DNA of 60,542 nucleotides from Candidatus Kaiserbacteria bacterium RIFCSPHIGHO2_01_FULL_53_31 (GTDB lineage Bacteria > Patescibacteriota > Minisyncoccia > Phycocordibacterales > Phycocordibacteraceae). The notes beneath the pieces were generated by a model. That model was not told the origin of the DNA. It searched no databases and saw only the letters and a list, made by a program, of their open reading frames with translations. This document shows, piece after piece, positions 15,008-53,588 of this stretch. Both the position numbers and the translations under genes were made by a program. Position 1 is the first letter of the stretch. Each line of letters begins with the position of its first letter. The DNA lies in assembly GCA_001781095.1 (NCBI GenBank), contig MFKU01000006.1, positions 21,999 through 82,540 of the forward strand. The letters are read 5' to 3'.

Positions 15008-15607
15008 ATGATGGATAAGACATCGTTAGAGCGGTGGTACGTTCGCGACAAGAAATCTGTGCACGATATCGCTCAGGCATTTCGTTGTTCTGACGGGAAG
15101 ATAAATTATTGGATGGAGAAACATTCCATTCCGAAGCGCTCAATTAGTGAGGCGATTTATACGATGCATAATCCGCTCGGCGATCCATTTGCGATCCAAG
15201 CTCCAAAGACAAACAGAGATTCATTCATTCTTGGTCTTGGTCTTGGCCTCTATTGGGGTGAAGGTACGAAAAGGAATCTGGGGCAGGTTCGGCTTGGCAA
15301 CACAGATCCGTATCTTGTGCGTTCATTCATTCTATTTTTACGAAATGCATATGGTATAGATGAATCACGATTGCGCTTCGCGCTCCAAATCTTCAGTGAT
15401 ATGGATCAGGGGAAGGAAGAACGATTCTGGCAAACGTTCTTGAAGATATCTCCGAAGAAATTCTACAAGACTATCAATACCCGATCCGGCAGCATAGGAA
15501 CGTATCGGGAAAAGTCCAAGCATGGTGTACTCACGATTTATTTCAATAATAAAAAATTGCGGAATATTTTAATCAGTGAAATTGAAAAAGTGAAAGAACT
15601 CCGTTAG
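15008..15607 (+). CDS. free-standing LAGLIDADG-like homing endonuclease with N-terminal HTH
   Basis: AT-rich 199-aa ORF; single LAGLIDADG-type motif ILGLGLGLYWGEGTK followed by LGNTDPYLVRSFILFLRNAYG; HTH-like SVHDIAQAFRCSDGKINYWMEKH. Family call is from motif only. Confidence 0.5.
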   Translation: MMDKTSLERWYVRDKKSVHDIAQAFRCSDGKINYWMEKHSIPKRSISEAIYTMHNPLGDPFAIQAPKTNRDSFILGLGLGLYWGEGTKRNLGQVRLGNTDPYLVRSFILFLRNAYGIDESRLRFALQIFSDMDQGKEERFWQTFLKISPKKFYKTINTRSGSIGTYREKSKHGVLTIYFNNKKLRNILISEIEKVKELR

Positions 15608-15629
15608 TATGCGTTGGTGCCTTAATAAA

Positions 15630-15882
15630 GCCGAGATAGCTCAGTTGGTAGAGCAGCGCCATGGTGGGTCGCAAACCCTGCCCACGATTCCCGCGAGGGC
15701 ATCGCGAATCCCGAATAACGGTCAATAGCTCCACAAGCCAAGACCGTGGCCCACAAGGGCCCGAACGACTGACAAGGGTGCCCCTCGTTGGGCAAATATA
15801 CAGTCTAGCCCTCTTTGTTGTGGCAATGAAGAAGAGGTGTAAGCGAAGGCGCAGGTCGTCGGTTCAATCCCGACTCTCGGCT
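15630..15882 (+). tRNA. tRNA-Thr (GGT) interrupted by a group I intron (exons 15630-15665 and 15846-15882)
   Basis: Joined exons give a 73-nt cloverleaf: acceptor GCCGAGA/TCTCGGC, D arm GCTC-AGTTGGTA-GAGC, anticodon stem GCGCC/GGCGC, loop ATGGTAA, T arm GTCGG-TTCAATC-CCGAC. Confidence 0.8.
15666..15845 (+). ncRNA. group I self-splicing intron, ORF-less, about 180 nt
   Basis: P1 GGT|GGG with CCTGCC (T-G wobble at the splice site), P2 with GCGA loop (15685-15704), P4 ACGGTC/GACCGT, P6 GGCCC-ACAA-GGGCC, P7 GACTG(15767-71)/CAGTC(15801-05), P8 GCCC/GGGC, P9 CCTCTT/AAGAGG, terminal G at 15845. Confidence 0.75.
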
Positions 15883-16169
15883 CAAGGTCAGAATGAAAGA
15901 AAAAATCCGCTGTGTTTAAGCCATATGAAGCAGTTCGACCGTCGACTGGTAGAAAGACCCCAAAGAGTAATCCTGCTGACGCCACATGGAATAAACGGCT
16001 CAAACAAAGGTCCTTTTCTTCAGGTTCATGGGTTCGAGCCGATACTTTGGTTTCAGCCCGGTGCACAACATCATTGTCCGCTCATGGTTCTTCCTGTACA
16101 GTTAGGGTGCCTGTGGGGCGTCAGCCCTATTTCGGCTAATACATAAGCCGAAGGCAGGCACTTCAAAGG
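15883..16169 (+). ncRNA. unassigned structured non-coding region downstream of tRNA-Thr
   Basis: No credible ORF. Long-range complements: TGTTTAAGCC(15913-22)/GGCTCAAACA(15997-16006, 9 of 10) and GCTGACGCC(15975-83)/GGCGTCAGC(16117-25). Local junction GTGCCTG(16107-13)/CAGGCAC(16155-61) encloses TTCGGCT/AGCCGAA. Ends at a terminator. Confidence 0.3.
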
Positions 16170-16198: not shown

Positions 16199-16678
16199 TC
16201 AGTCTTCCTCAGGGTTGCCTTTCATCGTGCTGAAGAGCTTGATGTCTCGGTATTTGTTGGTCGTCCATGCTGGCACGATGCTCCAGAAGTGGAGTTGTCC
16301 GTTGTCGCCGATTTTGCGCAGTATGACCTTGATCTTGCGTCCATCGACGATGGCGATGAGTCCCCAATACTTCACTGGCTTACTCTTCCGGACCTTCCTT
16401 TTGTGACTCTTGATCTCGAACTCCTTCAATGTTTCCTCGAATTCCTGATACGTTGTGGAGTGCTCGATGAGCTTTATGGCGATAGGCAACAATTTGAATC
16501 TCAATATCTGCGATGGGCGTTCTCGTTCGCTGCGTGAGCCTTTAAAAACGATGTGGTTGAAACCTTCGGCGGTGAAATGGACATATTCGTTCAGGGCCGG
16601 AGACTTGATCGGGCGCGTGCCCGTATAGAACCTGCGTGCGTCGTCGCGGAGTCTGGCATAGTTGGACACGTCCTCCAT
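16199..16678 (-). CDS. hypothetical protein
   Basis: Internal ATG (MEDVSNYARLRDDARRFY...) of the 177-aa ORF; protein-like composition, no family recognised. Confidence 0.5.
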   Translation of the reverse strand: MEDVSNYARLRDDARRFYTGTRPIKSPALNEYVHFTAEGFNHIVFKGSRSERERPSQILRFKLLPIAIKLIEHSTTYQEFEETLKEFEIKSHKRKVRKSKPVKYWGLIAIVDGRKIKVILRKIGDNGQLHFWSIVPAWTTNKYRDIKLFSTMKGNPEED

Positions 16679-16812
16679 GCAGCGTAGTGTACACTGTCGC
16701 ACCCGATGCGTGTGTAGAGATGTGCTCTGCACAGATCATGCTGCGTGCTGGGCACAGCGTGTCATCTTTAACGAGAATGGAAAAATAGACGGAAGCGGCT
16801 ACTATTCCCATC

Positions 16813-17185: not shown

Positions 17186-18124
17186 TCACGTGTGGACAAC
17201 ATAGGGAGTGCCGCGTTTCCAGACGGCATAGATTCTTTGAAGAACGTGCCGGGCATTTGCAACCGTAGCTTCCTTGTACCGTTTCCCTTCAGAGCGCTTC
17301 TTTTCATAATACGTTTTGAGAGCCGGATCATATCGTTGAGCGATCGAAGCGGCGATGAACAGTGCTCGACGTAGATACGGAGAGCCTCGTTTGGTTATTT
17401 TGGTATTGCGAGCGAGTGTGATGCCGCTCTGTCGCACCTTTGGATCAAGGCCAGCATAGGCCACCAGAGCCTTGCTGCTCGAGAATCGGTGTACGTCTCC
17501 GATCTCGGAGGCAATCGTTGCGGCGAGTGTCTCTCCGACTCCAGGAATGGAGGAGAGGAGCCCAGAGACTGCCGGATCGGTTGATTGTATGCCTTGCGCC
17601 CGTATCGCTTTCACCGCCGAGGCGATGTGTGTTTCAAGCGCGTGGAGCGTGTCCTGAATAGCTGGTTCTGCTTCCCAGTGCTCCTTAAAACCTTTGCGCA
17701 TATGGCTCACGGAGACGGCGAGACGCGTGAGTTCAGAGGACGTGCGCAACATTCTCTTGGCTGCGCTGAACGAGGCAACGGTGGCCGGTTCTCCCTCGCC
17801 TTGCAGTACACACTTGGCAATGACGTGAGCATCGGTGAGGTCAGTCTTGCGCTTCCGCACGGTGGCCCGCGTGAACTGTTTAGTGACAATGGGATTGAGG
17901 ACGATACAGGGGATGTCTCGCGCAATGCACGCCTTGGCAAGCACGTTGTGGTATTCGCCCGTCGCTTCGCAGCCGATGGTCCCGACGGTCACTAACGAAC
18001 TCAGAAATTCGGTGATACCCGTCTCGGTATTTGGAACAACATACGTCTCCTGAATCTCGCCTCTCTTGTTGATTCGCACTCCAACCAATTCTTTCTTGGA
18101 TACATCAAAGCCAATGATCTGCAT
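17186..18124 (-). CDS. IS110-family DEDD transposase/recombinase
   Basis: MQIIGFDVSKKE..., GCEATGEYH, ...KTDLTDAHVIA..., GVGETLAATIASEIGDVHRF...ALVAYAGLDPKVRQSG...ITKRGSPYLRRAL (DEDD_Tnp_IS110 plus Transposase_20 pattern). Confidence 0.9.
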   Translation of the reverse strand: MQIIGFDVSKKELVGVRINKRGEIQETYVVPNTETGITEFLSSLVTVGTIGCEATGEYHNVLAKACIARDIPCIVLNPIVTKQFTRATVRKRKTDLTDAHVIAKCVLQGEGEPATVASFSAAKRMLRTSSELTRLAVSVSHMRKGFKEHWEAEPAIQDTLHALETHIASAVKAIRAQGIQSTDPAVSGLLSSIPGVGETLAATIASEIGDVHRFSSSKALVAYAGLDPKVRQSGITLARNTKITKRGSPYLRRALFIAASIAQRYDPALKTYYEKKRSEGKRYKEATVANARHVLQRIYAVWKRGTPYVVHT

Positions 18125-49618: not shown

Positions 49619-50050
49619 TGGTGGAGGCGGGGGGAATTGAACCCCCGTCCGAATCTGTTATTGAAAGAGAGTCTACGACGCGTAGTCAGCGTTATCCGCC
49701 GAAGCGGTTTAAAGCAGGATGCGAAGAACGCAGACGAAACCATTCCTGCCCGATCCCTAATTTAGATGTCGCGGGCGGGAGACCGGACATCGATTCTACA
49801 GGTAATTCCGCCCATCCTTCCCACTGTAGAAACTGGAGAGGATAGACGTCGCGCTAGGCGACAGCGAGCTTACGCTCGAGCTGTTGCGTAGGCGAACGCG
49901 ATATCGCCGACCTTACCGAAGTAAGGCGACTTAACCGCGCTTGCAAGAGTTGTCTTGGCAAGTTTGTTTTCCCGCTGGATTTAAGTGTCAGCGGGAGAGC
50001 ACTGCGCCGCACATCCTTCAAGGTACAGACCGTCAAAGCCGGTCACCCCC
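49619..50050 (-). ncRNA. ssrA: transfer-messenger RNA
   Basis: Minus strand begins GGGGGTGACCGGCTTTGACGG and ends GGACGGGGGTTCAATTCCCCCCGCCTCCACCA. The acceptor has the G3-U70 wobble. One internal tag frame ends ...QQLERKLAVA-stop. Adjacent to smpB. Confidence 0.9.
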
Positions 50051-53425: not shown

Positions 53426-53499
53426 CCGCCCCTAGCTCAGCTGGTTAGAGCATCGAGCTTATACCTCGAGGGTCCTTGGTTCGAATCCAAGGGGGCGGA
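53426..53499 (+). tRNA. tRNA-Ile (TAT)
   Basis: Acceptor CCGCCCC/GGGGCGG (C1-G72), Ile-type D arm GCTC-AGCTGGTTA-GAGC, anticodon stem TCGAG/CTCGA with loop CTTATAC, T arm CTTGG-TTCGAAT-CCAAG. Confidence 0.8.
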
Positions 53500-53588
53500 C
53501 AAACACTGGTATAGATATAATATCTATGGTATAGACAGGACGGACACGAATTCTGACGAGAGGTAGACACATACAGAAAGGAGAGGTT

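Follow-up and report, generated by a model that had tools for sequence, protein, structure and literature searches.

A candidate group I intron in a tRNA-Thr(GGU) gene of Kaiserbacteria and its compact family in the Patescibacteria

What is the 180-nucleotide (nt) segment that divides a tRNA-Thr(GGU) gene of Candidatus Kaiserbacteria bacterium RIFCSPHIGHO2_01_FULL_53_31 into two halves, and could a working tRNA still be made from that gene? The locus lies on the forward strand of contig MFKU01000006.1 (assembly GCA_001781095.1), within a stretch of 60,542 nt (contig positions 21,999 to 82,540) that we refer to as the window and in whose coordinates all positions are given. An earlier reading of the sequence by itself, here called the original prediction, had proposed that a group I intron without an open reading frame (ORF) separates nucleotides 36 and 37 of the tRNA. 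On the strength of homolog collection, covariation tests and comparisons with known introns, we consider it highly probable that positions 15666-15845 are a spliced group I intron in tRNA-Thr(GGU), and sequence comparison indicates that this intron is a member of a compact family found across the phylum Patescibacteria, or Candidate Phyla Radiation (CPR).

A tRNA-Thr(GGU) gene in two parts

When the two exons (Table 1) are joined they form a 73-nt cloverleaf that ARAGORN identifies as tRNA-Thr(GGU) with the loop AUGGUAA, in agreement with the exon boundaries originally proposed. The interrupted gene is missed both by ARAGORN run without introns, which reports six other tRNAs in the window, and by Rfam at its gathering score, which reports the same six tRNAs and a transfer-messenger RNA (tmRNA). 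The source organism is a bacterium, as its tmRNA shows. No second tRNA-Thr(GGU) gene was seen in the window, and a search of the window for a second copy of the intron or another split tRNA found none. A mechanical ORF of 161 codons (15661-16146, forward strand) spans the 5' exon, the intron, the 3' exon and downstream sequence; judged from the insertions and deletions in the loops of homologous introns, it is very probably spurious.

The isotype requires some care. With introns allowed, ARAGORN labels 15630-15883 as tRNA-Arg(GCG), i(35,180), with the junction between nucleotides 34 and 35, and it labels many homologs Arg(GCG) or His(GUG); the Arg(GCG) placement arises because G/GU is repeated at the junction. 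The first base of the intron is not G in 79 homologs, so that their junction is unambiguous, and there the anticodon reads Thr. Position 20 of the joined tRNA is U, A20 being an identity element of bacterial tRNA-Arg, and U20, G1-C72, C2-G71 and U73 all agree with the window's other tRNA-Thr.

Further evidence comes from alleles that lack the intron. Using the protein encoded immediately upstream of the tRNA (Table 1) as the query, and thus independently of the intron, we gathered 80 metagenome loci, 73 of which have enough downstream sequence for the adjoining tRNA to be read. The intron-bearing tRNA-Thr(GGU) follows the protein gene in 51 of these and an uninterrupted tRNA-Thr(GGU), with the loop AUGGUAA of the predicted spliced product, in 20; one of the remaining two has tRNA-Thr(CGU) and the other no tRNA. 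The uninterrupted orthologs carry GGU, and the anticodon is therefore GGU rather than GCG, with a presence/absence polymorphism exactly at 36/37. The threonine identity and insertion site of the original prediction, which had also proposed looking for uninterrupted genes in related genomes, are thus borne out, and a tRNA-Arg(GCG) with a 34/35 junction is ruled out by the 79 introns with other first bases, the uninterrupted orthologs and U20.

Table 1. Coordinates of the split tRNA gene, the elements of the predicted intron and the upstream gene in the window
Feature	Position	Strand	Evidence or remark
199-amino-acid gene: N-terminal helix-turn-helix and C-terminal domain with invariant GxGxGLYWGEG	15008..15607	+	ends 22 nt 5' of the tRNA
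5' exon of tRNA-Thr(GGU), nt 1-36, ending G34 G35 U36	15630..15665	+	ARAGORN on joined exons; anticodon-stem covariation
Predicted group I intron, 180 nt, no ORF, between nt 36 and 37	15666..15845	+	homologs, covariation, covariance model R1
P1: exon GGU 15663-15665 with guide GCC 15680-15682; GGGU 15666-15669 with ACCC 15675-15678	15663..15682	+	
P2 hairpin, GNRA tetraloop GCGA at 15693-15696	15683..15706	+	
P3 5' strand CCC 15710-15712, then J3/4 GAAUA 15713-15717	15710..15717	+	
P4: ACGGUC 15718-15723 / GACCGU 15742-15747, enclosing P5	15718..15747	+	
P5: GCU 15728-15730 / AGC 15736-15738	15728..15738	+	3/3 pairs covary
P6 hairpin, GGCCC/GGGCC	15748..15761	+	compensatory changes in 4/5 pairs
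P7 5' strand, A-[C bulge]-GACUG, presumed guanosine-binding helix, pairing with 15801-15806	15765..15771	+	
P3 3' strand GGG, pseudoknot with P7	15776..15778	+	
P8 hairpin	15779..15794	+	all 4 counted pairs covary
J8/7 AAUAUA and P7 3' strand CAGUCU	15795..15806	+	
P9 hairpin, CCUCUU/AAGAGG	15810..15837	+	6/6 pairs covary
Terminal G (omega G) at the 3' splice site	15845..15845	+	
3' exon of tRNA-Thr(GGU), nt 37-73, CCA not encoded	15846..15882	+	

Homologs and the fold of the insertion

A 21-mer taken from the core of the insertion matched six CPR metagenome-assembled genomes (MAGs), and a gapped pattern of the core, imposing nothing on the exons, matched at least 119 genome loci. The matches listed are nearly all from Patescibacteria and include Saccharibacteria, Kaiser-, Lipton-, Wolfe-, Jorgensen-, Uhr-, Moran-, Peregrini- and Paceibacteria, among others; every one of the 114 complete introns among them lies at 36/37 of tRNA-Thr(GGU), with lengths of 171-234 nt. 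Because the core pattern was free of any exon constraint, the intron lineage is therefore specific to tRNA-Thr(GGU). A second scan, anchored on the exons only and blind to the core, added at least about 50 further members with the same core, giving a combined set of about 165 introns from both scans among the matches listed, again nearly all from Patescibacteria. The intron is carried by at least about 165 species, in which both tRNA halves still form a perfect cloverleaf. Two candidate loci, L144 (Caulobacter) and L158 (Verrucomicrobiae), proved to be uninterrupted tRNA-Thr genes with a chance match downstream and were left out of the set. An nhmmer profile of the family matched exactly once at each locus and, in the window, nowhere but at the intron.

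The fold was examined in an alignment (A1) of 114 sequences made with MAFFT. RNAalifold, unaided, returned from it the exon-exon anticodon stem, P1 including the U·G at the splice site, P2 and P4-P9; P3, as a pseudoknot, and the outer pair of P7 were added before pairs were counted. In this structure 95.5% of cells are paired, as compared to 78% in shuffled alignments and 33-44% when the partners are slid by 1-3 columns, and the covariation score is 0.474, as compared to 0.142 and 0.067-0.110 respectively. Double compensatory changes are present in 33 of the 52 pairs: covariation extends to all pairs of P2 (9 of 9), P5, P8, P9 and the anticodon stem, and to four of the five pairs of P6. The two strands of the anticodon stem lie in different exons; with compensatory changes at all five exon-exon pairs it covaries across the intron, and the tRNA is therefore under selection and must be spliced.

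The core helices P3, P4 and P7 are invariant in the set of 114, in part as a consequence of the search pattern, which prescribed one of the two strands in all three. In the core-blind sample the CCC/GGG of P3 is exchanged for CUC/GAG in ten sequences and for CCU/AGG in four, such that the middle pair in the set of 165 is CG in 154, UA in 10 and UG in one, and the next pair CG in 150, UA in four and UG in seven. P4 is invariant or wobble-compatible in all 165. The inner five pairs of P7 are invariant, and its outer A-U pair is replaced by G-C in two homologs, L143 and L163.

The G-C, G-C and U·G pairs between exon and guide in P1 are kept in 165, 165 and 164 of the 165 sequences, the G of the splice-site wobble (U15665·G15680, where U15665 is U36) having been imposed by no search pattern; the inner pairs of P1 covary, and U15679 is bulged. 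The intron ends in G in all 165, an agreement partly imposed by the extraction and scan patterns, and by eye the same G is present in L027 and L098, two complete loci for which extraction failed. The loop of P2 (L2) is a GNRA tetraloop in 158 of 165, which suggests a tertiary dock for this hairpin. Within the J8/7-P7' segment, AUACAGUCU is the same in all homologs, and the corresponding segment of homolog L007 (AAGAUACAGUCUA) can be aligned with AAGAUAUAGUCU, the consensus for group I in Rfam. The P7 of the window intron, A-[C]-GACUG / CAGUCU, and AAGAUACAGUCU, set against that consensus, also appear to fit the classical R and S elements (J6/7 and J8/7) around a guanosine-binding P7. The minimum-energy fold of the window intron (-62.5 kcal/mol, z = -2.37) recovers P4-P9.

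All of the helices named in the original prediction (P1, P2, P3, P4, P6, P7, P8 and P9), together with its splice-site wobble, GNRA loop and terminal G, were recovered where it had placed them. The sole addition to its fold is the bulged C15766 with an extra A-U pair in P7, a layout that we take to be that of the Tetrahymena and Azoarcus ribozymes. The assignment to group I is supported by comparison, through the order of P1 to P9, the P3/P7 pseudoknot, the U·G wobble, the terminal G, the P7 bulge beside an invariant G-C pair and the alignment of J8/7-P7' with the Rfam consensus.

We note that members of the family are also found under other taxonomic labels. A CPR-type intron is present in a tRNA-Thr(GGU) gene (L146:5196-5450, reverse strand) on contig10 (300 kb) of Niastella populi CCTCC AB 208238, the assembly of a cultured Bacteroidota isolate, at a locus with a G+C content of 40%; this is either contamination or a horizontal transfer from the Patescibacteria. 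The CPR-type intron is likewise present in several MAGs that carry the labels Gammaproteobacteria or Pedobacter.

Relation to known group I introns and the splicing model

Similarity to recognized group I introns is detectable in two steps. On a homologous intron, the full-length Rfam model Intron_gpI (RF00028) aligns in the correct orientation and coincides exactly with the insert, with 16 bits (E = 0.048 on 206 nt), the well-aligned parts being J8/7-P7' and the P9 hairpin. We also made a covariance model of the core from P3 to P9 (R1), with a seed of 45 diverse members. It scores the window intron at 131 bits and the Niastella populi member, which was not in the seed, at 133.8 bits, and the gap between members and background exceeds 100 bits. 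R1 also matches IC3-like tRNA-Thr introns of Alphaproteobacteria, L170 at 21.5 bits (E = 3.7e-5) and L149 at 16 bits (E = 0.0023); these matches are weak and are aligned through P7-P8-P9. RF00028 in turn matches the Azoarcus-like intron in tRNA-Thr(GGU) of Paracraurococcus ruber (L161) at 37.6 bits (E = 2.5e-8). As R1 reaches the alphaproteobacterial introns and RF00028 reaches L161, there is a chain of similarity in two steps to known group I introns. The nhmmer profile of the family did not detect IC3 introns.

The alphaproteobacterial introns are an observation in their own right. Azoarcus-like introns of 193-199 nt occupy site 36/37 of tRNA-Thr(GGU) in L130 (Magnetovibrio), L149 (SAR116), L161:3337-3574 (Paracraurococcus ruber JCM9931), L170 and L175, and splicing them in silico yields tRNA-Thr(GGU); we found no published report of them.

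The splicing reaction that we propose follows the group I pathway. In the precursor, the guide GCC at 15680-15682 would pair with G34 G35 U36 to form P1 with the U36·G wobble, and an exogenous guanosine, held in P7 at G15767-C15805 beside the bulged C15766, would attack the phosphate 3' of U36. G15845 would next occupy the guanosine site, and the 3'-OH of U36 would attack after G15845, joining U36 to A37 and freeing the intron. End processing and CCA addition would then give a functional tRNA-Thr reading ACC and ACU. The predicted spliced junction is ...GCGCCAUGGU/AAGGCGC..., and GAGCAGCGCCATGGTAAGGCGCAGGTCG is the sequence expected to span it.

Several points weigh against this interpretation. 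The chemistry is argued by analogy with group I introns; P4 and the inner part of P7 are without variation even in the set of 165 and so have no support from covariation; and P10, for which the 3' exon and the guide region were compared by eye, shows no covariation and is unsupported. With a P3 of only 3 bp and a length of 171-234 nt across the family, autonomous folding is not assured. Finally, RF00028 gives no match in the window at its gathering score, nor any at E <= 10 on 15580-15930, and scores homologs at 15.4-16 bits relative to a gathering score of 50. The original prediction had named the lack of a significant Intron_gpI match as a ground for abandoning it, and that lack is what we found; yet the Paracraurococcus intron, used as a control, also falls below 50, and the absence of an Rfam match is therefore unreliable as a refutation for small tRNA introns.

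The small size also speaks for the most probable of the alternatives, namely that the intron is derived from group I but no longer autonomous, and needs a protein cofactor (a maturase or chaperone) that may be encoded by the upstream gene. To our knowledge the smallest self-splicing group I introns are represented by that of Azoarcus, at about 205 nt, and this family is as small or smaller; furthermore, the conserved gene lies directly upstream on the same strand, 0-50 nt from the tRNA, in about 65 of 147 intron-bearing loci (~44%). More than half of the intron-bearing loci, however, lack the gene within the locus fetched (up to about 8 kb). The gene is also not specific to the intron, as it adjoins uninterrupted tRNA-Thr and has distant paralogs directly upstream of uninterrupted tRNA-Tyr(GUA), tRNA-Met(CAU), tRNA-Trp(CCA) and tRNA-Val(GAC), and the GNRA loop and invariant core favour a tertiary fold that is self-contained. 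We regard dependence on such a cofactor as unlikely. It is far less probable still that the locus is a dead tRNA with an unspliced insertion, two pseudogene halves: although neither tRNA finders nor Rfam models detect an intact gene, the cloverleaf and its covarying anticodon stem persist across the family, the insert has a conserved RNA structure of its own, and no other tRNA-Thr(GGU) is seen in the window. Removal by protein enzymes, as for archaeal bulge-helix-bulge introns, or the tRNA-Arg(GCG) suggested by ARAGORN, is equally hard to credit, the organism being bacterial, the site being 36/37 and not the 37/38 that is canonical for archaeal tRNA introns, and the arginine isotype being contradicted by the evidence given above.

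How does a spliced group I intron at this position compare with those already described? Group I introns at 36/37 of bacterial tRNA anticodon loops are classical, this being the site of the Azoarcus and Agrobacterium introns. Like the IC3 introns of Azoarcus tRNA-Ile(CAU), Agrobacterium tRNA-Arg(CCU) and cyanobacterial tRNA-fMet and tRNA-Leu(UAA), those of the CPR family lack an ORF, are about 200 nt long and follow a U in the anticodon loop; they share with them a P1 on the anticodon with U·G, the terminal G, the GNRA loop of P2 and the absence of a P5abc extension, and R1 cross-matches IC3-like tRNA-Thr introns at 16-21.5 bits. They differ in their host, tRNA-Thr(GGU), and in the smaller size of some members (down to 171 nt); the window-type family has J3/4 GAAUAA, J6/7 CGAAC and a 3-bp P3, lacks the IC3 GAGCCAAGC motif, and scores 16 bits with RF00028 as opposed to 37.6 for the IC3-like control.

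Group I introns in rRNA genes of CPR bacteria have been reported (Brown et al. 2015, as cited in PMC12641178; Tsurumaki et al. 2024, PMC11270868), and the window intron resembles these in phylum, in intron class and in frequent presence or absence among relatives. It differs in residing in a tRNA and in being ORF-less and about 180 nt, whereas those in rRNA genes are long and in many cases code for LAGLIDADG endonucleases. Group I introns in CPR tRNAs were remarked on by Lui et al. 2021 (PMC8172020) without isotype or structure, and the tRNAscan-SE 2.0 paper (PMC8450103) lists bacterial tRNA group I introns for fMet and Ile2 only. In the searchable literature we came across no account of a tRNA-Thr group I intron; beyond the reach of that literature lies a preprint on tRNA group I introns of Patescibacteria (Nakagawa et al. 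2025, bioRxiv 10.1101/2025.07.03.662931); its title points to a non-classical site, in contrast to the classical 36/37. The novelty first claimed was overstated in two respects, in that tRNA introns of the CPR had already been noted and tRNA-Thr(GGU) is an IC3 host in Alphaproteobacteria as well. What is new is the host tRNA together with a compact, divergent intron family, a modest novelty that the 2025 preprint may already cover.

There are practical consequences for annotation. In intron-bearing genomes tRNA-Thr(GGU) goes undetected by ARAGORN, by the Rfam tRNA model and by the Rfam group I model, and many genomes of Patescibacteria will be recorded as lacking the gene, with distortion of inferences on completeness and codon usage; automated pipelines could also propagate the wrong isotypes Arg(GCG) and His(GUG). 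With this family tRNA-Thr becomes one of the few bacterial tRNAs in which group I introns occur, and a single tRNA-Thr site is seen to be occupied by two intron lineages, the CPR type and the IC3 type, that are unrelated. As a naturally minimised group I core, it should be of use in studies of ribozyme folding.

The upstream gene and other features of the window

The protein encoded upstream of the tRNA belongs to a family with 1932 database relatives, all unnamed. Its helix-turn-helix matches HTH_23/HTH_28 and, in 30 of 30 members, the DNA-binding module in two PHROG families of phage proteins annotated 'HNH endonuclease', and its GLGLYWGEG motif looks like a LAGLIDADG motif. Pfam LAGLIDADG_3 gives a weak match in four of 30 members (best E = 0.022), and matches to models of phage endonucleases and viral LAGLIDADG proteins are also weak. 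Two AlphaFold models of the family (predicted local distance difference test score of 84.8 for the C-terminal domain model) were searched against the PDB with Foldseek, which returned no LAGLIDADG protein, no TM-score above 0.42 and no significant match, and a sequence search of the PDB gave only spurious matches to nanobodies. With Pfam matches weak and no fold match in the PDB, we rejected assignment to the LAGLIDADG enzymes and keep the label 'endonuclease-like'.

Genes of this type are found at L029, L089, L156, L086 and about 60 other loci, as well as at L188-L267. The gene is missing from the syntenic loci L003, L004 and L005, where an upstream gene of 109 codons and the intron-containing tRNA are retained, and it is as tightly linked to intron-less tRNA-Thr as to the interrupted form, 72 of the 73 loci collected through the gene having tRNA-Thr downstream. 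Judged from the distances between stop codon and tRNA, the ORF apparently ends at the TAG of tRNA positions 8-10 in about 17 loci. A strict link to the intron, as its specific maturase or homing enzyme, is rejected, the gene being absent from most intron-bearing loci and adjoining both other tRNAs and tRNA-Thr without the intron. The family is thus optional, tRNA-adjacent and probably selfish, and is not a dedicated partner of the intron. A promoter-like TTGAAA-17-TAGTAT is present at 15582-15610, such matches being no commoner than in shuffled sequence.

The arrangement invites comparison with the ORF-less psbA intron of cyanophage S-PM2, which reportedly spreads with the free-standing endonuclease F-CphI by 'collaborative homing'. 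As in that system, an ORF-less intron is accompanied by an optional endonuclease-like gene directly beside the interrupted gene; in contrast to it, the gene here is as often beside an intron-less tRNA-Thr, its paralogs lie beside other tRNAs, no LAGLIDADG fold was matched, and its role as a nuclease is putative. An ambitious joint reading, in our view speculative and rather improbable, is that the family includes the smallest natural self-splicing group I ribozymes, that the gene founds a new class of free-standing, tRNA-targeting homing endonucleases, and that the two make up a collaborative homing system. On this reading, subfamilies of the gene are tied to tRNA-Thr, Tyr, Met, Trp and Val, and the two-part system at tRNA-Thr(GGU) would have spread through the Patescibacteria and occasionally beyond (Niastella). 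In any event, a locus with an optional upstream gene offers a tractable case in which to study the persistence of ORF-less introns and endonuclease-like genes in reduced genomes.

Downstream of the tRNA, an ORF of 177 codons on the reverse strand (16199-16732), with a weak match to LPD3 only, lies between the tRNA and an IS110-family transposase gene (17186-18124, reverse strand; DEDD_Tnp_IS110 and Transposase_20), which is 1.3 kb from the tRNA. The tmRNA gene (49619-50050, reverse strand; 432 nt, 100 bits) has sizeable insertions relative to the 374-position Rfam model. One of the uninterrupted tRNA genes, at 53426-53500 on the forward strand, is tRNA-Ile(UAU), an anticodon that is rare in bacteria; its presence implies a decoding of AUA that does not rely on the usual lysidine-modified tRNA-Ile2(CAU).

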